55,354 nt of DNA from Candidatus Eiseniibacteriota bacterium (GCA_034440375.1 JAWXBZ010000045.1:1-55354), one strand, 5' to 3'; positions 37,005 through 47,173 are shown, counted from the stretch's first letter. The notes: generated by a model from the letters alone, not told the origin. A program made the numbers and translations.

Positions 37005-38078
37005 ATGATGCGTGCGCTGGCACCGGAACTTTCCGATCGCATCTTCCAGAGCCTGCCGTTCGGGGTACTGCTCCTTGATCGTCGCGGGCGGATTGCCGCA
37101 TGCAATCGCCGGGCACTCGATCTTTTCGCCCTGGTGGACGACGACATCGTCGGCCGGGACGTAAACCAGGTTCTCCGGACCGACGACCCTCACTGGTTCA
37201 GTCTCGACCCGATCGACCGACTGGGCGATCCCGACGCCGGCCGGCTGGTGGAAGGGCGAATCGGGGGGCGAAAGGTCACCTTTTCAGTCAATCTGGCTCC
37301 GTGCACCGACGAGGCGGGCGCCACCCAGGGCACGCTCGTCCTGCTCGACGATTCGTCCCGGCGGGGGACGGACGACGACCGGATGGAGCGCCTCATTTCA
37401 CTGGGGGAACTATCGGCCTACGTGGCTCACGAGATTCGAAACCCGCTGACCGGGGTCCGCACGACGATTCAGTTCATTGGCCAGAAACTGGGCAAGGACG
37501 ACCCGAAGCAGGAGGACATTGAGGCGATCATCGCGGAACTTGACCGGGTCGAAAAGATCATCGAGGACTTGCTTCAGTTCTCCCGGCCCCAGGTGGGGAC
37601 AAAGGCCATGACCAGCCTCAATACACTGGTCGATCGAACCCTCGAGGCGCTGGGCCCCCAGTTCGAGGCAGCCAGGGTCGAGGTCAACCGCAATCTCCGA
37701 GCCCGCCTGCCCGAGAGCCTGATGGACCCGGACATGATCCAGCGCGTCCTGTTCAACCTGATCACCAATGCCGTCGAAGCGATGCCCGACGGTGGTTCCC
37801 TCAAGGTCACGACCACGGTGCGCCGCTACCGGGCGGGGGAGGCCAATCTCGAGGTCTTCATCAGCGACACCGGTCGTGGCATCGACCCCGAGATTGTCGA
37901 ACGAATATTCCAGCCCTTCTTTACCACGCGGCCGGCCGGGACGGGGCTGGGCCTGCCGATCTCACTTCAAATCGTGCGCGCGCACGGAGGGCGAATCACG
38001 GCCCGCAATCGGGCGAAGGGGGGCGCCATCTTCCGACTTTCCCTCCCGCGCGCCACGGCCACCACCGAGGAGGCCTGA
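37005..38078 (+). CDS. Cytoplasmic PAS-domain sensor histidine kinase (NtrB-like)
   Basis: PAS region (LPFGVLLLD..GRI..CN), H-box VAHEIRNPL, NLITNAVEAM, DTGRGI, FQPFFTT and GTGLGL. No TM segment. Confidence 0.93.
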   Translation: MMRALAPELSDRIFQSLPFGVLLLDRRGRIAACNRRALDLFALVDDDIVGRDVNQVLRTDDPHWFSLDPIDRLGDPDAGRLVEGRIGGRKVTFSVNLAPCTDEAGATQGTLVLLDDSSRRGTDDDRMERLISLGELSAYVAHEIRNPLTGVRTTIQFIGQKLGKDDPKQEDIEAIIAELDRVEKIIEDLLQFSRPQVGTKAMTSLNTLVDRTLEALGPQFEAARVEVNRNLRARLPESLMDPDMIQRVLFNLITNAVEAMPDGGSLKVTTTVRRYRAGEANLEVFISDTGRGIDPEIVERIFQPFFTTRPAGTGLGLPISLQIVRAHGGRITARNRAKGGAIFRLSLPRATATTEEA

Positions 38079-38079
38079 T

Positions 38080-39483
38080 CTGAAATCGACCGTCCTGGTC
38101 ATCGACGACGAGCCCTCGATCGTCCGGTCGCTTGATCGAATCCTGACCGACCGGGGCTACAAGGTCGAGTCGGCCGGCTCGGCCGCCCGGGGAATGGAAC
38201 TCCTGGCCAGTGTCCGTCCCCAGGTGGTCCTGCTCGATCTGAATCTTCCGGATGGCCACGGCATGCCGTTGATCAAGGAAATTCTGGTTTTCGACCCGGC
38301 CATTCGGGTGATCGTGATCACGGCCTTCGGCGACTTGAAGCTCGGCATCGAGGCCATGAAAGCCGGCGCGAACGACTTCCTGAAGAAGCCGTACGAAATG
38401 GACGAACTGATACTGGCGGTGGACAATGCGGCGCGCGCCTTCGAGAGCCAGGTCCGTCTCGACATCTACAGCCGGCGGGAGGCCGAGATATTTCACGGTC
38501 AGCACCTGATCGGCGAGAGTCCGCCCATGGTGCGGCTCCTGGACATTGTCGAGCGGGTGGCCGGCAGCAACGCCACAACGGTTCTGATCCTGGGAGAGAG
38601 CGGAACCGGCAAGGAACTCGTGGCGCGGGCCATTCACTATGGAAGTGAGCGAAAGAACGCGCCGCTCATGGAGGTGAACTGCAGCGCGTTTCAGGAAACC
38701 CTTCTCGAGAATGAGCTATTCGGCCACGAGCGTGGGGCCTACACCGACGCCCGTGAACTCAAGAAGGGGCTGGTGGAACTCTGCGATGGTGGCACTCTTT
38801 TCCTGGACGAAGTGGCCGACATGCCGCTCGCCACCCAGGCCAAGTTGCTCCGATTCCTTGAAAACCAGACGTTCAAGCGAGTCGGCGGCGGCGTCGATCT
38901 CCGGGTGGATCTTCGGATCGTAACCGCCACGAACAAGGACCTTGCGACGGAGATCGCCGCGGGCAACTTCCGGGAGGACCTGTTCTATCGACTGAAGGTT
39001 GTTTCGCTCGAACTCCCGCGCCTCACCGACCGTGGCGACGATGTGCTGCTCATCGCCCGCTGGTATCTCCGGCAGTTCAATCAGAAGTTCAAGAAGTCAT
39101 TCCGCGAAATTGCTCCGGAAGCCGGCCGCCTCATCGGAGCCTACCGCTGGCCGGGAAACGTACGCGAATTGAAAAATGTATTGGAGCGTCTCGTACTCCT
39201 CGAGAACGATACGGTCCTCCGGGTCGAGCACCTTCCGGCCGAGATCCGGGAGGCGGGAAGGAATCCGGCATTTCGGAGAATGGCTCCAGCCGAGCTGCTC
39301 GGTGTCGATGATGTACCGACGCTTGCCCGGATAGAGGATGACCACATCCGGCGAGTCCTGCTTTTGACCGGTGGAAACAAGTCTCATGCGGCCCGCTTGC
39401 TCGGGATTTCGCGGCAGGGGTTGTTCGAGCGTCTCAAGCGAGTGGTCGAACCCGTTGCGGCGACCGAACAGGGCGTCAAATAA
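38080..39483 (+). CDS. sigma54-dependent NtrC-family response regulator (REC-AAA+-Fis HTH)
   Basis: VLVIDDE, LLDLNLPD, GESGTGKE, NELFGHERGAYTDA, LFLDEV, FREDLFYRL, WPGNVREL and GNKSHAARLLG. Probable CTG start at 38080 after GAGGAGG. Confidence 0.93.
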   Translation: MKSTVLVIDDEPSIVRSLDRILTDRGYKVESAGSAARGMELLASVRPQVVLLDLNLPDGHGMPLIKEILVFDPAIRVIVITAFGDLKLGIEAMKAGANDFLKKPYEMDELILAVDNAARAFESQVRLDIYSRREAEIFHGQHLIGESPPMVRLLDIVERVAGSNATTVLILGESGTGKELVARAIHYGSERKNAPLMEVNCSAFQETLLENELFGHERGAYTDARELKKGLVELCDGGTLFLDEVADMPLATQAKLLRFLENQTFKRVGGGVDLRVDLRIVTATNKDLATEIAAGNFREDLFYRLKVVSLELPRLTDRGDDVLLIARWYLRQFNQKFKKSFREIAPEAGRLIGAYRWPGNVRELKNVLERLVLLENDTVLRVEHLPAEIREAGRNPAFRRMAPAELLGVDDVPTLARIEDDHIRRVLLLTGGNKSHAARLLGISRQGLFERLKRVVEPVAATEQGVK

Positions 39484-39507
39484 ATAGACATGTCCATAAA
39501 ATTGGCA
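39474..39507. promoter_or_regulatory. Putative tandem bEBP upstream activator sequences
   Basis: CGTC-AAATAAATA-GACA directly followed by TGTC-CATAAAATT-GGCA (YGTC-N9-GRCA twice), about 200-225 bp upstream of the -24 element. Confidence 0.55.
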
Positions 39508-39686
39508 ACATTGTAACTTATTGAATTGCAAAGCATTACGGTGGTGCGGCCAATAATCGTCCTATTTGATTACGCCCCATTCGGTTAGGAAGATCCGGCA
39601 CCCTTTTCACCTGTTCACACCTATTCCGATGGCTAAATTGTTTTATTTCAACAACTTATGGATCAGGCCGTCTGGCATGAAACTGG

Positions 39687-39699
39687 TAACTTATTGATT
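39687..39699 (-). promoter_or_regulatory. IHF-binding site
   Basis: Reverse complement AATCAATAAGTTA is an exact WATCAANNNNTTR match. One-mismatch copies lie at 39514-39526 and 39646-39658. Confidence 0.6.
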
Positions 39700-39714
39700 G
39701 GCATCAGGTTTGCA
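39698..39714 (+). promoter_or_regulatory. sigma54 -24/-12 promoter
   Basis: TTGGCATCAGGTTTGCA: GG(39700-01)-N10-GC(39712-13), matching TGGCA-N6-TTGCA, about 30 bp upstream of ATG 39744. Confidence 0.82.
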
Positions 39715-39743
39715 GTGTGACCTTGCATGATGTTCGGGAGGCA

Positions 39744-40130
39744 ATGGTGTCGAAAATGGTCCTGATCGTGGAGGACGAAAAGCTGCTGGCTCGCACGCTC
39801 AGCCGGGCGATGAAGGATGCGGGGTATCGCACCGTCACGGTCGGCAGTGCCGAGTTGGCAGAAAAGCAGCTGGGTACGTCCCAGTTCGACCTCATGGTCA
39901 TCGACAACCGCCTGCCCCAGGAAACGGGGCTGGAGCTCCTGTCAAAGGTCCGCGATGCCAATCAGGACCTGAAGGTGATCTTGATGACCGCCTTCGACAG
40001 CCGCGACGTCAAGTCTGAAGCCAGGAAATTGAAAGTGGACCGGTACCTGAAGAAACCGTTCGATCTGGAACGGATGCTGGCCCACGTTTCCGAGTTGATC
40101 GGCGGCCCGGAAGATGGCCCGACCGATTAG
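39744..40130 (+). CDS. Single-domain response regulator (receiver only)
   Basis: VLIVEDE, DLMVIDNRLP..TGLELL, ILMTA and YLKKPFD motifs; GGGAGG RBS. Confidence 0.92.
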   Translation: MVSKMVLIVEDEKLLARTLSRAMKDAGYRTVTVGSAELAEKQLGTSQFDLMVIDNRLPQETGLELLSKVRDANQDLKVILMTAFDSRDVKSEARKLKVDRYLKKPFDLERMLAHVSELIGGPEDGPTD

Positions 40131-40159
40131 ATCCCAATACAGGAAGGAGGTGGTTCGGA

Positions 40160-40246
40160 ATGGCGGCGAAGAAGAAGGCGGCTAAGAAGACGGCCAAGAA
40201 GGCGACGAAGAAGAAGTCTGCGAAGAAGGCGTCGAAGAAGAAGTAG
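40160..40246 (+). CDS. 28-aa Lys/Ala-rich histone-H1-like peptide MAAKKKAAKKTAKKATKKKSAKKASKKK
   Basis: Below the ORF-track cutoff. Strong SD AAGGAGGTG 7 nt before ATG; all 15 Lys codons are AAG; a terminator follows. Confidence 0.82.
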   Translation: MAAKKKAAKKTAKKATKKKSAKKASKKK

Positions 40247-40296
40247 TTCAACTTCCGCCCGAACGCCCCGCCCGCATGACGGGCGGGCACCGAGAG

Positions 40297-40337
40297 GGGT
40301 CGGTCCTGGCCGGAGTCAGGGCCGGCCCACTTTTTTT
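40297..40337 (+). terminator. Intrinsic terminator of the receiver/basic-peptide transcript
   Basis: GGGTCGGTCCTGGC-CGGA-GTCAGGGCCGGCCC (with G-U pairs), then AC and T7. Confidence 0.8.
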
Positions 40338-40378
40338 GACGGGGTGGGGATTGGGATGATGGGGTGAATTCCAGGGCA

Positions 40379-40416
40379 AGAAAAACGGCGAATCCGAGAG
40401 GATTCGCCGTTTTTCT
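40379..40416. terminator. Intrinsic, bidirectional-type terminator
   Basis: AGAAAAACGGCGAATCC-GAGA-GGATTCGCCGTTTTTCT perfect 17-bp inverted repeat with A/T tracts, downstream of the minus-strand gene ending at 40454. Confidence 0.85.
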
Positions 40417-40453
40417 GTTTGCTCGAAACAGTGCTGCCCGGGTGCTGTTGAAC

Positions 40454-41044
40454 CTAGTTACAGGTCGCCGCTGTTGCCACAGGGGCGGTCAGCAGCGTGG
40501 CATCGGAAAGGCCAACGGTTCCATCGGAGTTCAGGTCGAAGCAATATCCGTAAGTCGCGGTGGAGAGCGGAAAGGTGAACTGGACGGCATCGTTCAGCGC
40601 CACCTCGCAAGGGGGCCCGAGGGCAGTGCCCGTGAGGTCGGGCGACACCTGCCCCACTTCCTTGATCTTGATGCTGTTGATGAACACCTCAACCGCCACG
40701 CCGCCTGGAATCGTGGCCGGGTTCAGGCAACGCCCAAGTCGGAGATTGAAGACGGCCACACCACTGGCATTCGTGGTGGACGAGACGCTGGGGTGCGTCT
40801 GGGTTGAACACCAGCAAGTTGCCGTATCACCCGCTACTGTCCATACAAGCGTGACGTTAGCGCTGTCGATCGGGCCGCTGGTGCCGACGATCGTGACCCG
40901 GTAGGCCAGGCCGCCGTTCGGTGACCCGAGAACATTGGGGATGGTGCTGAGTGCGGGATCCGGAACGCCGGCAAGTGCGGACACGGGTGCCACGACAAGG
41001 CCCAAAGCAAGAACGAGGAAAGGAACTCCATAACGCCGACCCAT
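40454..41044 (-). CDS. Secreted Cys-containing protein with Ig-like beta region and dockerin-like Ca-binding repeats
   Basis: AGGAGGT RBS; signal peptide ..SALA|GVPDPALS; STTNASGVAVF; SPDLTG...VALND and CFDLNSDGTVGLSD; 6 Cys. Confidence 0.75.
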   Translation of the reverse strand: MGRRYGVPFLVLALGLVVAPVSALAGVPDPALSTIPNVLGSPNGGLAYRVTIVGTSGPIDSANVTLVWTVAGDTATCWCSTQTHPSVSSTTNASGVAVFNLRLGRCLNPATIPGGVAVEVFINSIKIKEVGQVSPDLTGTALGPPCEVALNDAVQFTFPLSTATYGYCFDLNSDGTVGLSDATLLTAPVATAATCN

Positions 41045-41122
41045 CGATGCACCTCCTGAATGTCCCGGGCTGGTTAAATCGTTGCTGCACGGCCTGTTTT
41101 TAGATGGATCGCAGGCACTGGG

Positions 41123-41151
41123 AGTGTATCGGACGTGCGGCCCACCTTCAA
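41123..41151 (-). promoter_or_regulatory. Putative sigma70 promoter for the 41044 gene
   Basis: TTGAAG-17 bp-TACACT on the minus strand. Confidence 0.5.
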
Positions 41152-41167
41152 CATTCATTTTTGTGGG

Positions 41168-42070: not shown

Positions 42071-42394
42071 CTTCTCTTCCTCGCTGGCTGACTGGAAACC
42101 AAAGGCCTGAATCCGAACGGCCGACCGCCATTTCCTTGACTGACACCGGCTCTCGAGCGTACAATCTTGCCTTGTTCGTGCCGCATTGTCGACTCGAGCA
42201 CCGAGTGGCCGCCACCACATCCTGGAATGACAACGCCCCCGATGACCACAAACGAGTTGACCCTTTGGCACGACACACCTTGATGGTCGACGATCAACCC
42301 CGTCCCTGGGATGTCTGGTTCCCGGGGTGCGGGGCTTTTCTTTGAAAGCGCTTTTTTGATTTGCCGCTCCGTGACATGCCCTGAGGAGGCCAGC

Positions 42395-45300
42395 ATGCTC
42401 CAGAGCCGGAGGCGTCCCCGACAGTTTCCGTTCGGGATTCTGAGGCCAGTTGCCCGAACCCTGTTTTTTTCGGCCCTTATGGCAGCCATTTCGATTGGCG
42501 TGGCCGGCGCAGGTGTCCACCAGGTTGAGGTTCGTTTTGATCCGGCCGCCATCACGCGCGGCGTACGAATGGGAGTTGACGGGGCCGCCTGGCTGCTTCC
42601 CGGGTGCAGCGTCTGGAATGAGGCCGGTGCGCCGGCCGTTCCGTTTCGTCCGGTTCTCCTCGCCGTTCCGGCGGGAGAAAGGGTCGTGTCGGTGACCACC
42701 CGTGCCTCCGGAGCCTCCGTTGAGCTGGACCTGGGCGAGCCGGGTATTGGAAGCACCGACGGAAGGCGTGCCCCAACCGCCTGGGACGGGGCAACCCCGT
42801 ATCCGGCCCGGCTCCACCGATCGAGTGATGCGGGCTGGATGCGCGGACAGCAAATCCAGCCCCTGACCATCTGGCCGCTGGATTGGGATCCGGGCCGCGG
42901 CCTGGCCACCCTCACCACGTCCATCTTGATCGAGATGGTGACCGAGGCGGCCCCACCACCCGCGGATACCTTTCTGCCGCTCCGACCTTCAGCACGGGTC
43001 GACGGTCATTTCGGGGCGCTGTTGTCGTCGTGTGTCCTTAATCCCGAACTGCTCGCGGACGAATCCCGGCGGCGTGATGTCATTCGCCCCCTCGATTCCG
43101 CCGCGACACCCTTCAGCCCGCGGTTCCGCCCCTCCGTGGACGGCAGCCCGGTCGAAATGGTGATCATCACCTCGGAGGCGCTGGAGCCTTACTTCACGCC
43201 TTTGGCCGTGTGGAAGACCGAACGGGGGATCCCCACGGTGGTACGCAGCACCGAATGGATCCGGGCCAACTACCCCAACGCTGTCGATCTGGCATCGACG
43301 ATCCGCCGGTTCATCGCTGACGCCGCTTCCCGCTGGGGGACCGAGTACGTCCTCCTGGCCGGCGGATCCGAGATCATTCCGGTGCGCTACGGCAAGAGCC
43401 TTTACTTCGGTGGCGAGGACATTCCGGCGGACATGTATTACCAGTGCCTGGACGGCACCTGGAATTCCGACGGGGACGCCTTCTTCGGTGAGGGCTACAA
43501 CAGTTCGTTGATCACCGGCGACGGTTGCGACCTTTTCCCCGAAGTGTGGCTGGGGCGCGCGGCCGTTTCGGATTCAACAACCGCGCAGACCTTCGTCAGC
43601 AAGAATCTGACCTACGAACGGGACCCGGCCCCGGGTTACCTGACCCGCGCCATGATGATGGCCGAGGTTCTCTTCCCCCAGCACTATTCGACCGGTGATT
43701 CCATCGTCTACGACGGCGCTTATGTTGCGGAGCAGGCGCTCTCCCGATTTCCCCCCTCGTTCACACTGTCGCGTTACTACGAGAATTTCCCACCGTATGC
43801 CCCTCTCGGCGCGTTGCCCGAGACCAAAACGGCTGTCGTTGACGCAGTCAATTCGGGTTACGGCATCATCCAGCATGTCGGTCACGGCTACATCAATACG
43901 ATGGCCGTCGGCATCGACGGACTGACGCTCGGCAATCCCGATGTGGCCGCGTTTTCGAACGGACCCCGGTATTCGCTTCTGTACTCCATCAACTGCACTT
44001 CGGCGGCGTTCGACTTCAACTGCATCGGCGAGGAGTGGTTGGAGAACGCGACGGGCGGTGCCGTGGCCAATGTCGGATCAACCCGGTTCGATTTTCCGGG
44101 CACCGGCACCGAGTACCAGAACGAGTTCTACCGCGTGCTGTTCGGGGCGCCGGTGCCGAGCCTTGGTGAAGCCTTCGCCGGCTCGAAAATCCCGTTCATC
44201 GCGGAATCGACCTCCGATTCGGAGCACCGCTGGACACAGTTTGCCCAGGTACTCCTCGGAGACCCGTCGCTTCGCATCTGGCGGTACGAGCCGGTGGCGG
44301 CGGCGGTATCGCACCCGTCGTCCATCGAACTCGGTGCCGGCGTCGTCGTCGTCACGGTGATGCGGGGTGGATCACCGGTCGATTCGGCGGTGGTTTGCCT
44401 GTTCAAGAATTCGGACGACTACGTGGTTGCCCTCACCGACGGCGCCGGGCAGGCAACACTTGATTTCCATCCGGATCGGCCGGGCCAGTCCCGGCTGACC
44501 GTGACGCATCCGACACTTCGCCCGTGGCAATCCGATATCGCCGTCCTTGCGCCGGCATTGCCACACCTCTTCGCCTCACTGGCGGTCGTCGACGACGCGA
44601 CGGCCCCGGCAGACGGAAACGGTGACACGATTTTTGACCTCGAGGAAACGGTCCGTTTCGAACTGGTACTGACCAACCAGGGGACCGCCCCGGCCACTCT
44701 GGTGACCGCCACCCTTGTCTCGGCCGATCCAAATCTTCAGATCATCGACGGCACCGCCAGCTGGCCCAGCCTCGGCGTCGGGGCCTCGGCCCCGCCGATC
44801 GATCCGTTCGTCATCCGGGCGGTGGGCACCGCGACCGATCGCTATGAGACCACCGCCACATTGATCATTGCGGCGGCCGGTTATTCTCGTTCCGAGCCGG
44901 TAATCATCCTGGTCGGCGCCCCCCTTCTCGAACGATATCGACTTCTGCGGAGCGACGTTGGCTTGGGAAATGGAAACGGGCTGATTGAGGTCGGCGAAAA
45001 CCAGACCCTGACCCTGACGCTGCGCAACAACGGGCGGGGCGCGGTCCGAAATGTCACTGCCAGGCTCCGCCCGCTCGGTCCCGAAACCACGATCAGTGAC
45101 TCGATGGCCAGCTTCGGCACCATCGGTGCCGACCAGGTGGCCATTGGCGACCCGTTCGTTTTTCAATGGAGCACTATCAACCCCTCGCGCAAGATGCGAT
45201 TGGTGGTCGAGAGTCTCGGCAAGACATTGATGAGCTTTGACGTCGACGTGTACCCCCCGGGCACGCCGGTGCTGCCGGCCGCCGGCGGGAAGGCCTCATC

Positions 45301-47173
45301 CATCGCATTGACCTGGCAGCCGAATATCGAACTGGACAATCGCGGCTACGTCGTCTATCGGGGAACAGCCGCCGGCGGTCCGTTCGCCCGTGTCAACATG
45401 TATGCTGACAATCGAATCGCCTACTACAATGACGAAAACCTGGCGCCCCTGACGCGATTCTATTATCGGGTGGCCTCGATCGATCAGTCCGGGAATGAAA
45501 GCCCCCAGTCGATCGTGGCAGCCGCCACGACCACGCTGTCCAGCTCGGCCGGCTACCCGCTGTTGCTTGGCGGATCGACATCGTCCTCCCCGACATTCTC
45601 ATACTTTGACGGGGACACGATTCCTGAAATTGTCTGCGGCGCGGAGGAACTGTACGTCATCAGCGGGCTCGGAATCGAGTTCGTCGACGGTGACAACGAC
45701 GGTCGGACGTATGGCGTCTACTCCAGCTCGGGTTACGCCACGTTCTGGTCGCCGCCGTCGTCGACCGACATCGACCTGGATGGCGTCATCGACGTCTGCG
45801 CGGCCGGGTGGAGCAACGGACTTCTTTATCTTTACGATGGCCATCTCGGTACCAAGCCGGGATTTCCGGTGAACATTGACGTCAGTGGCACCGGCAACCC
45901 CGGCACCTGGAGCGCCCCGGTCATGGTTGACGTCGATGGTGACGACGTGATGGAAATCTTCATCAACTCGGGAGCCCACACGTACGCATTTCACGCTGAC
46001 GGCTCGGAACTGGTCGATGGGGATGCGAACCCGGCCACCCAGGGGGTTTTCGCCGCCCTCGGTGCGCCGTCCAACTACTCGACACCGCGTATCGTCGACC
46101 TCGACAACAATGGGGTCATGGAAGTGATCATCGCCAGCCGCGACAGGAAGCTGTACGTGAAGCATCTCAATGGCACCAACTATCCGGGCTTCCCGATCAC
46201 GTACACCGGGGACATCACGTCAACGCCGGCCATCGGTGACCTGAACAACGACGGATTGAAGGAGATCGTCTTTGGTTGCAGCGACAACAAGCTGTATGCC
46301 TTCAACATCAACAAGGTGGCCCCGCCCGGGTGGCCGAAGGGGGTCAATTTCAACCAGGACCTCGATTCGAGTCCGGCACTGGCTGACATGAACGGGGATG
46401 GGTTCCTCGATGTGGCCATCTGCGCTGGAAACGGAACGGTGGGGATCTTCAAGGGGCAGGATGGCGGGATCTTTCCCGGTTTTCCTGTCATACTGACGAA
46501 TGGCGCGGGTCAGTCCATACAGATACGGTCAAGTCCGTCCATCGGCAACGTCGATACCTCGCCGGACCTGGAAATGGTCTTCGGCGGGCAGGACGGCAAC
46601 GTCTATGCCCTGAAGACAAACGGCACGATGGCCATCGGATTTCCGATCAAGACCGATAACGTCGTGGAAGGGGGGGCGGTTCTCTGGGATGTCGATGGGG
46701 ATGGCCTTACCGAAGTATGCGTTCAAAGTTTCGACCAGCGGTTGTATGTCTGGGACACGCCGGCGCCCTTCACCGCCCAATCATGTCCATGGCCGATGTT
46801 CGGCCACGACAGCCGTCGAACCGGCGTGGTCGGCAACCCCATCTTCATTGTGACGGGGACTCCCGATTCGCCGCCGGCACCGCCTCTTCCATTGACCCTG
46901 GCCCAGAATTCACCGAATCCATTTCAGCCGGCGACAACGATCCGATTCCGCGTGGCGCCGGACTCAAACGTCCGGTCGGCGCAGCTGGCAGTTTTTGATC
47001 CATCGGGGCGGCTGGTGCGCCGATTGTTTGAGGGCGAGGTGGCAGCGGGGGAATTCGAGTTTCGCTGGGATGGTCTGGATGACGCCGGGTGTGCCGTGGG
47101 GTCCGGAGTTTATTTCTACCGGATTGAAGCGAACGGGCAGTCGATCACTCGAAAGATGGTGCTCGCGCGGTAA
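42395..47173 (+). CDS. C25 (gingipain-family) cysteine peptidase with propeptide, Ig/FnIII-like modules, FG-GAP/VCBS-like repeats and FlgD-Ig CTD
   Basis: GAGGAGG RBS; WKTERG, YVLLAG, PADMYY, WLGR, His in IQHVGHG, Cys in SINCTS, LLGDP; DxDxDG repeats; terminal QNSPNPF...WDGLDD..GSGVYFYRI..KMVLAR. Confidence 0.9.
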   Translation: MLQSRRRPRQFPFGILRPVARTLFFSALMAAISIGVAGAGVHQVEVRFDPAAITRGVRMGVDGAAWLLPGCSVWNEAGAPAVPFRPVLLAVPAGERVVSVTTRASGASVELDLGEPGIGSTDGRRAPTAWDGATPYPARLHRSSDAGWMRGQQIQPLTIWPLDWDPGRGLATLTTSILIEMVTEAAPPPADTFLPLRPSARVDGHFGALLSSCVLNPELLADESRRRDVIRPLDSAATPFSPRFRPSVDGSPVEMVIITSEALEPYFTPLAVWKTERGIPTVVRSTEWIRANYPNAVDLASTIRRFIADAASRWGTEYVLLAGGSEIIPVRYGKSLYFGGEDIPADMYYQCLDGTWNSDGDAFFGEGYNSSLITGDGCDLFPEVWLGRAAVSDSTTAQTFVSKNLTYERDPAPGYLTRAMMMAEVLFPQHYSTGDSIVYDGAYVAEQALSRFPPSFTLSRYYENFPPYAPLGALPETKTAVVDAVNSGYGIIQHVGHGYINTMAVGIDGLTLGNPDVAAFSNGPRYSLLYSINCTSAAFDFNCIGEEWLENATGGAVANVGSTRFDFPGTGTEYQNEFYRVLFGAPVPSLGEAFAGSKIPFIAESTSDSEHRWTQFAQVLLGDPSLRIWRYEPVAAAVSHPSSIELGAGVVVVTVMRGGSPVDSAVVCLFKNSDDYVVALTDGAGQATLDFHPDRPGQSRLTVTHPTLRPWQSDIAVLAPALPHLFASLAVVDDATAPADGNGDTIFDLEETVRFELVLTNQGTAPATLVTATLVSADPNLQIIDGTASWPSLGVGASAPPIDPFVIRAVGTATDRYETTATLIIAAAGYSRSEPVIILVGAPLLERYRLLRSDVGLGNGNGLIEVGENQTLTLTLRNNGRGAVRNVTARLRPLGPETTISDSMASFGTIGADQVAIGDPFVFQWSTINPSRKMRLVVESLGKTLMSFDVDVYPPGTPVLPAAGGKASSIALTWQPNIELDNRGYVVYRGTAAGGPFARVNMYADNRIAYYNDENLAPLTRFYYRVASIDQSGNESPQSIVAAATTTLSSSAGYPLLLGGSTSSSPTFSYFDGDTIPEIVCGAEELYVISGLGIEFVDGDNDGRTYGVYSSSGYATFWSPPSSTDIDLDGVIDVCAAGWSNGLLYLYDGHLGTKPGFPVNIDVSGTGNPGTWSAPVMVDVDGDDVMEIFINSGAHTYAFHADGSELVDGDANPATQGVFAALGAPSNYSTPRIVDLDNNGVMEVIIASRDRKLYVKHLNGTNYPGFPITYTGDITSTPAIGDLNNDGLKEIVFGCSDNKLYAFNINKVAPPGWPKGVNFNQDLDSSPALADMNGDGFLDVAICAGNGTVGIFKGQDGGIFPGFPVILTNGAGQSIQIRSSPSIGNVDTSPDLEMVFGGQDGNVYALKTNGTMAIGFPIKTDNVVEGGAVLWDVDGDGLTEVCVQSFDQRLYVWDTPAPFTAQSCPWPMFGHDSRRTGVVGNPIFIVTGTPDSPPAPPLPLTLAQNSPNPFQPATTIRFRVAPDSNVRSAQLAVFDPSGRLVRRLFEGEVAAGEFEFRWDGLDDAGCAVGSGVYFYRIEANGQSITRKMVLAR

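Follow-up and report, generated by a model that had tools for sequence, protein, structure and literature searches.

Domain-less polycations rich in lysine and alanine are known in a few bacteria, where they are proteins of about 100 to 350 residues. The chlamydial Hc2 binds DNA and is made conditionally. ScvA of Coxiella is a basic protein of about 30 residues, rich in Arg and Gln and devoid of an AKK repeat, and lineage-specific small basic peptides are known from ribosomes (bTHX and bS22). Very small gene products can also be the output of sigma-54 two-component systems, as in ZraSR-zraP and GlrKR-glmY.

The size of Hc2 is reported to vary with the number of its repeats, from 165 to 237 aa in C. 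trachomatis (PMC2848022). In Coxiella, Hq1 and ScvA are described as small basic DNA-binding proteins that are enriched in the small-cell variant with its condensed nucleoid (PMC4766238). For AlgP of Pseudomonas, which has a Lys-rich repeat tail and a net charge of +55, peptides of the KPAA repeat were reported to bind DNA in vitro, and the protein was found to be enriched on polyphosphate granules and to be needed for granule spacing (PMC9239181). H1-like histones that carry only a C-terminal domain (CTD) act on chromatin and are said to resemble bacterial H1-like proteins, and the one of Toxoplasma also associates with the nucleolus and with ribosomal proteins (PMC9769792).

The locus analysed here contains an ORF of 28 codons whose product, like those of its orthologues, falls into the compositional class (not a homology family) of bacterial H1-like Lys/Ala repeat polycations. 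This product gave no match in Pfam or NCBIfam. Its best-scoring orthologues stayed below the cut-offs of the two Hc2 models, with 32.7 bits against 40 for PF07382 (HC2) and 22.3 bits against 135 for NF038052 (histone_lik_HC2), and below the 80-bit cut-off of NF038053 (hist_H1_lk_Burk; best orthologue 30.3 bits, no match for the 28-aa ORF). With scores below threshold, the resemblance to Hc2 is compositional as far as sequence comparison goes, and no homology is established. In the searchable literature, whose coverage stops short of subscription journals, neither such a gene nor a histone-like protein of the Eisenbacteria is described.

The micro-ORF and the surrounding predicted sigma-54 module

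The window, by which we mean the whole 55,354-nt stretch of DNA that was analysed, carries the micro-ORF downstream of a kinase gene, a regulator gene and a receiver gene (Table 1). The 28-aa product comprises 15 K, 8 A, 2 T, 2 S and 1 M, with no D or E, and has a net charge of about +15. All 15 Lys codons are AAG, for which a probability of 0.007 is obtained at the genomic AAG share of 72%. The genome (3.96 Mb, GC 63.8%) uses Lys in about 2.2% of the codons of long ORFs, and a crude binomial estimate for at least 15 Lys in 27 codons is about 2e-18. When ORFs of at least 12 aa were collected in six frames over the whole genome, 2 of 61,852 had a Lys content of at least 30%; the second one is 15 aa long, and the 28-codon ORF is the sole one of at least 16 aa with such a content in the 3.96-Mb genome. 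The Lys-rich ORF is far beyond chance. Its Shine-Dalgarno (SD) 9-mer occurs in 36 copies genome-wide on both strands, with a start codon 4-10 nt after it in just 6 of them. The features named in the original prediction, namely a 28-aa ORF with a 9-nt SD and an ATG, exclusive use of AAG for Lys, no acidic residue and two hairpins on the 3' side, were all found again.

Table 1. Features of the micro-ORF locus, in window coordinates
Feature	Position	Strand	Description
Sensor histidine kinase (PAS-HisKA-HATPase)	37005..38078	+	cytoplasmic; first gene of the module; Pfam PAS, HisKA, HATPase_c
NtrC/AtoC-like sigma-54 enhancer-binding response regulator (REC-AAA+-HTH_8)	38071..39483	+	approximate start; Pfam Response_reg, Sigma54_activat (218 bits), AAA_lid_14, HTH_8
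Sigma-54 -24/-12 promoter-like element TGGCATCAGGTTTGCA	39699..39714	+	in AT-rich intergenic region; one mismatch to TGGCAC-N5-TTGC
Stand-alone CheY-like receiver	39744..40130	+	first cistron of the sigma-54 unit; Pfam Response_reg, 8.1e-25
Shine-Dalgarno AAGGAGGTG	40144..40152	+	9 nt, 7 nt ahead of the ATG
Micro-ORF MAAKKKAAKKTAKKATKKKSAKKASKKK and stop	40160..40246	+	28 codons; ATG at 40160, TAG at 40244-40246
First 3' hairpin CCCGCCCG-CATGA-CGGGCGGG	40267..40287	+	8-bp stem, 5-nt loop, followed by GGGCAC; computed fold
Intrinsic terminator	40297..40337	+	14-pair stem at 40297-40328, then T7 at 40331-40337

On the opposite strand a Phe/Leu-rich ORF of 93 aa (40009-40290, -) starts within the terminator stem and overlaps the receiver gene. 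It is open because it is the complement of AAG and GCN codons, nothing more, and it was rejected since promoter, SD, ATG and T-run all give the + strand.

The two regulatory genes of the module could be assigned by domain but not by equivalog family. The best NCBIfam score of the kinase was to an AtoS-like model (272 bits, below the cut-off of 646 bits), and the regulator scored 405 bits with AtoC and 386 bits with NtrC, both under cut-off. We therefore treat kinase and regulator as a generic pair, both being under every NCBIfam equivalog cut-off. For the receiver, the ATG at 39744 was taken as the start because the listed GTG at 39717 precedes the point at which transcription is expected to start. 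The receiver has a net charge of about -2 and has orthologues in relatives.

Upstream of the receiver, the strict form of the sigma-54 pattern was present in 19 of 27 orthologous loci, against a background of 0.018 per 120 nt for other parts of these loci, and the remaining 8 of 27 showed, by eye, one-base variants at -12. In the window as a whole, matches with two mismatches were not enriched (49 against 50.5 expected), so that the weight of TGGCATCAGGTTTGCA lies in its position and conservation only. The -24 GG/-12 GC spacing upstream of the first cistron, the enhancer-binding protein next to it and an rpoN gene in the genome (G000:C93) together give the characteristics of a sigma-54 unit, and we infer sigma-54 dependence in vivo. 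Because the element lies beside an NtrC/AtoC-like activator, expression is probably induced by a signal and not constitutive or ribosomal. The peptide had originally been predicted to be highly expressed; in the constitutive sense this does not agree with a unit placed behind a conserved sigma-54 element beside an enhancer-binding protein, for which conditional expression is predicted.

The AT-rich intergenic region also contains palindromes, around GACATGTC (39477-39504) and TTGCAA (39519-39538), and an 18-nt direct repeat GTAACTTATTGA(A)TTGCA/GGCA (39686-39703), the second copy of which overlaps the -24 element. The palindromes and the repeat are candidate activator-binding sites. On the far side of the unit a 234-aa protein with no family match is encoded at 40454-41158 (-), and at 42311-47173 (+) a 1620-aa protein with a Peptidase_C25 domain, FG-GAP repeats and a C-terminal FlgD_ig-type domain. 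The six neighbour proteins that were scanned include the kinase, the activator, the receiver, an uncharacterised secreted protein and the C25 peptidase.

Conservation and length forms in the phylum

The stand-alone receiver (39744-40130) was searched against 40 relatives and the DNA 3' of each best match was read. Of 30 loci, 28 (that of the window among them) had a K/R-rich ORF with a strong SD after the receiver orthologue; 27 of these were recovered by a script with fixed offsets and one further locus, L023, had been missed by these offsets. In 25 of the 27 scripted loci the ORF started 2-109 nt past the receiver stop, the two others being L010 (-23) and L018 (no receiver stop). The SD ahead of the orthologous ORFs was of the type GGAGG(G)GTGA. 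As to the two loci without an ORF, L030 ends at the contig edge, and the receiver match of L031 is weak (E 7e-21) and probably non-orthologous. All 20 additional loci read in eight families (f9, f10, f12 and f14-f18) carried the micro-ORF as well, the one in L097 being broken by an N run. Within the phylum, which is probably Ca. Eisenbacteria, a 201-nt DNA probe built from one relative's SD, ORF and 3' flank gave matches in 196 of 206 genomes, and a stringent repeat pattern restricted to AAG did so in 152 of the 206; both tallies include genome G081, flagged as unpublished, which enters no other claim. The same kind of ORF is carried by a 'Candidatus Eisenbacteria' MAG. Loss or disruption of the ORF in close relatives, which would have spoken against a gene, was thus not what the 28 of 30 loci showed, and the search for micro-ORFs of the SD+MAAKKK kind next to orthologous receivers that had been proposed with the prediction found them at the same loci. 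This comparison of loci confirms the 28-codon ORF as a genuine conserved gene of the phylum.

Similarity searches did not recover the family. Exact look-up in a collection of 15 billion proteins found 0 of 10 forms (the 28-aa peptide and nine orthologues of 30-227 aa), and a homologue search with a 112-aa orthologue returned just 3 weak matches after composition correction. As sequence searches are blind to the family, homology of the micro-ORFs is taken from synteny alone. In a Planctomycetia MAG (L110, G210:C191) we observed a 20-aa ORF, MAKKKKKAAKKAAKKKKGHG, and Lys/Ala micro-ORFs therefore exist outside the phylum too. In the other genomes checked, matches to the AAG-repeat pattern were mostly tails of longer proteins.

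The orthologues ranged from 13 aa (MAKKKAKAKKKKK) to 227 aa. By family, the lengths were 16-19 aa (f9), 21 aa (f18), 21-27 aa (f10), 26-31 aa (f17), 28 and 30 aa (f1, the window genome and its sister), 62-120 aa (f2), 116-154 aa (f13) and 227 aa (f7), and predicted length is stable within a family. In f10, the largest family, a 21-22-aa ORF of the form MAAKKKAAKKK[AGV]TKKK[AV]AKKKK was found in 29 of 30 loci, with none in L070 by the pattern used. At all lengths from 13 to 227 aa the orthologues lacked a recognisable domain and were nearly free of acidic residues. The 28-aa form is thus a single member of a series of lengths and no lone oddity, which corrects the original description on this point; that the product is a domain-less polycation like an H1 tail is supported. 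Some long forms end in short, non-basic tails (Pro/Met/hydrophobic) that are conserved within families and could be docking motifs or degrons: ..S[NS]RM[IV]KM, for example ..SNRMVKM, in L004, L007, L009 and L010; ..[ED]LPSIF[TSN]M in L017, L019 and L020; ..PPL in L093-L095; and ..KKPLCCA in L028. Short forms, the 28-aa one included, have no such tail. In L024 (G020) the sequence from about 1920 is AAA-rich and split into several consecutive K-rich frames, which reflects either slippage or an assembly error in the A-runs, or else a decaying copy.

The spread of lengths bears on the proposal that the peptide is a lineage-specific ribosomal peptide, a RiPP precursor or an exported cationic peptide. 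Small size, a very basic composition and a very strong SD would suit any of these, and one orthologue has two Cys residues in its ending ..KKPLCCA. Against this, a ribosomal protein would be expected to have a fixed length and sequence and a constitutive or ribosomal-operon context, whereas the orthologues vary from 13 to 227 aa and belong to a sigma-54 unit rather than to a ribosomal operon, and the ribosomal part of the original prediction is given up on these grounds. A RiPP precursor would be expected to have a Cys core and an adjacent radical-SAM maturase; the peptide contains no Cys and matched no NCBIfam precursor model, and the six neighbour proteins included no maturase, no transporter and no signal-peptide-bearing partner. 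We regard this group of readings as highly improbable.

In the loci of f10 (89 genomes; 5 loci read for layout) there is no receiver gene. There the activator gene is followed by the sigma-54 element, a leader of ~100-150 nt, the SD, a 22-aa ORF and the terminator. A tie of the micro-ORF to a receiver is consequently not obligatory, since the largest family has the one without any gene for the other. We therefore consider the micro-ORF as the constant output of the module and the receiver as an optional passenger. In f10 loci L044-L048 and L054-L083 a uvrA-like ORF was observed downstream of the micro-ORF.

The same layout weighs on the idea that the peptide modulates its own signalling module in a feedback, as small products of other sigma-54 two-component systems do, acting on the receiver, the activator or the activator's DNA sites. 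The micro-ORF is always beside the activator gene and in most families is co-transcribed with the receiver, at gaps from stop to ATG down to 2 nt (f2), and the non-basic C-terminal tails of long forms could dock on a partner. Yet in f10 the ORF is nearly unchanged without a receiver, the receiver of the window is near-neutral (about -2), and short forms have no tail. Such feedback appears improbable to us. A role of the receiver as an acidic chaperone was likewise rejected on the basis of its net charge of about -2.

Coding signature and RNA-level features

Among 27 f10 ORFs of 22 codons, 7 of 69 columns were variable. None of these fell on codon position 1, two fell on position 2 (Ala/Gly/Val and Ala/Val) and five on position 3, including TAA/TAG, and Lys was encoded by AAG only, 14 times in each ORF. 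Iterated AAA codons are reported to give less protein output and to cause ribosome sliding (PMC4363877), so that avoidance of AAA is in keeping with translation of a poly-Lys ORF. Between the window genome (G000) and its sister, the ORF shows two in-frame indels of 3 nt, the other changes being mostly at wobble positions, and the SD is nearly identical. A strain variant seen in DNA run X12 showed 21 differences over 39598-40156 (559 nt) and zero over 40170-40246. The type of codon variation, the AAG bias and the invariant SD-ATG geometry taken together favour translation.

For transcription, contigs from RNA libraries of two studies cover the locus, X15 record 9 at 40107-40250 and X16 record 17 at 40109-40250, with one difference each; the sole listed difference within the ORF, 40183 T>A, is synonymous (GCT to GCA). 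These contigs have no strand, ends or level, and they amount to a weak hint of transcription because DNA carry-over is possible. Most of the 901-nt stretch had no high-identity cover in the RNA runs, from which nothing follows, and DNA run X6, of which about half was read, gave just low-identity pieces on the repeat. In all four runs contigs that are <90% alike stack on 40151-40243; these are other AKK-coding sequences, possibly eukaryotic H1 mRNAs, and are uninformative on this gene. RNA runs X17-X20, which contain about 0.11 of the sampled words, do not enter the evidence.

Downstream of the stop codon, the first hairpin has a similar arrangement in the sister genome and the terminator stem is nearly identical there, and a terminator-type hairpin is also found 3' of orthologous ORFs. 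Many families share a motif, GG(C/G)CACGTCC, placed after the stop of the micro-ORF and ahead of the terminator, namely in L044-L083 (f10), in L005, L012, L013, L015, L021, L100 and L101 (f9), in L084-L089 (f17) and in L017, L019 and L020. The window locus does not have the conserved form of this motif and keeps just GGGCAC (40288-40299), after the first hairpin. The motif core CACGUCCU is complementary to the SD AGGAGGUG at 7 of 8 positions and is one base off the 16S anti-SD, CACCUCCU. It is predicted to form a mini-hairpin GGAC-CUGGCAC-GUCC, and in some of the f10 loci another copy, immediately upstream, is predicted to pair with the SD. Rfam has no family for the motif and gave nothing in four orthologous loci. 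The motif may be an element of translational control or of stability.

Two further pairings and one database match were considered apart from this motif. A long-range pairing between GUUCGG in the SD spacer and CCGAAC past the stop, as seen in the MFE fold, is not conserved in the sister genome and was discarded. A perfect hairpin AAAAACGGCGAATCC-GAGA-GGATTCGCCGTTTTT at 40380-40417, with an A-run and a T-run on its flanks, is probably a bidirectional terminator that serves the convergent gene 41158-40454 (-). The sole Rfam match, to mir-9447 at 40373-40425 and below threshold, is spurious, its source being this hairpin.

Near-invariant ORF nucleotides in f10 and the conserved 3' motif show some constraint on the RNA too. 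They could be taken further, to a conserved element that is mainly RNA, either a small regulatory RNA or a cis-element, with translation of the ORF incidental or regulatory. The exclusive AAG, the complementarity of the GG(C/G)CACGTCC core to the SD at 7 of 8 positions and the f10 transcript, which would be short and mostly untranslated leader, agree with this. The changes that do occur, however, are at wobble positions or are conservative exchanges among Ala, Gly, Val and Thr, indels stay in frame, and every orthologue has an optimal SD and ATG in the same place while repeat number and nucleotides differ widely between families. The absence of an Rfam match and of the conserved-form motif in the window locus also speaks against an RNA element, and we consider this reading quite improbable compared with a translated gene.

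Predicted mode of action and relation to known polycations

In the mechanism that we propose, the micro-ORF would be translated as the last cistron of a short sigma-54-dependent transcript that runs from the promoter at ~39699-39714 through the receiver gene and the micro-ORF to the terminator. The adjacent PAS kinase and NtrC/AtoC-like protein would probably turn this transcript on upon the signal of the kinase. The 28-residue peptide, with a charge of ~+15 and no folded domain, would act via charge alone and bind a cellular polyanion, most probably chromosomal DNA, with the result that the nucleoid would be compacted, shielded or silenced. The peptide would then be a minimal inducible analogue of a histone H1 tail, of Hc2 and of ScvA. 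That the peptide binds nucleic acid or polyphosphate, as was originally proposed, is the best reading by composition and analogy only. With moderate confidence, and by analogy with the described Lys/Ala polycations, we favour an inducible domain-less polycation made from a sigma-54 unit and binding a polyanion, with DNA as the most probable main target.

The same gene and the same regulation could serve another target, that is polyphosphate granules, ribosomal or other RNA, or acidic lipids, and the peptide would then organise granules, form coacervates or damp translation. The peptide has charge and no specificity determinants, AlgP is reported on polyphosphate granules (PMC9239181), the genome encodes PPK1 and two PPK2, and the H1-like protein of Toxoplasma is reported with nucleolus and ribosomal proteins (PMC9769792). 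On the other hand, the locus shows no link with ppk, granule proteins or ribosome genes, and for most Lys/Ala repeat proteins the target on record is DNA. A target other than DNA is possible but less probable. Gene content did not serve to tell the two main targets apart: the genome holds two HU/IHF-type genes in addition to the PPK1 and PPK2 genes, and conventional DNA partners are therefore present and polyphosphate is available as a target.

A bolder form of the DNA or polyanion reading, which we put forward tentatively, is that of a switched 'protamine': an oligolysine of 13-30 residues, made only when the sigma-54 circuit fires, would by its charge alone condense the nucleoid or coacervate RNA or polyphosphate and so lead to a protected or dormant state. 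If this were true, the peptide would be the smallest dedicated bacterial chromatin or condensate protein known, its length of 13-227 aa would be tuned per lineage by gain and loss of repeats, and it would be one case of a widespread unannotated (AKK)n micro-gene class, for which the Planctomycetia 20-aa ORF may be compared. Independently of this proposal, the gene is retained across a whole candidate phylum as one for a peptide (in many families of 13-30 aa), with a maximal ribosome-binding site and a predicted sigma-54 switch of its own, and it supplies the output of a conserved two-component/sigma-54 module that was otherwise anonymous in this uncultured phylum. If the peptide condenses polyanions, it would provide a minimal and genetically tractable model of charge-driven control of nucleoid or condensates and would point to a class of micro-genes systematically missed by gene callers and tryptic proteomics.

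Compared with the known systems, the peptide is like chlamydial Hc2 (hctB) in its Lys/Ala-rich repeats of the pentamer type and in the lack of a folded domain, and unlike Hc2 in that forms here go down to 13-30 aa and in that the gene lies in a sigma-54 unit beside its activator. The KPAA-repeat domains of Pseudomonas AlgP and PhaF are likewise disordered Lys/Ala repeat polycations that have been compared with the H1 tail. There, however, the repeat is Pro-rich and forms the tail of a folded N-terminal domain (352 aa in AlgP), whereas the peptide has neither another domain nor Pro and is built from the unit A/T/S-A-K-K(-K). The CTD-only H1-like histones of kinetoplastids, dinoflagellates and Toxoplasma share with it a Lys-rich domain of the C-terminal type without a globular domain, but these eukaryotic proteins work on nucleosomes and have a greater length (91 aa in Toxoplasma), and we know of no regulatory parallel for them. 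ScvA is, by analogy, the nearest precedent for a conditionally made nucleoid protein of peptide size; it is confined to one genus, whereas the micro-ORF is spread through a phylum. In circuit logic the closest counterparts are ZraSR-zraP and GlrKR-glmY, in which a kinase and an enhancer-binding regulator adjoin a sigma-54 promoter from which a single very small product is made, with the difference that here an oligolysine peptide takes the place of the periplasmic chaperone or small RNA. The product would work like the known Lys/Ala polycations, but three features set the gene apart from them: it is of peptide size, it is conserved throughout the phylum at lengths that are fixed per family, and it has a predicted sigma-54 switch of its own.
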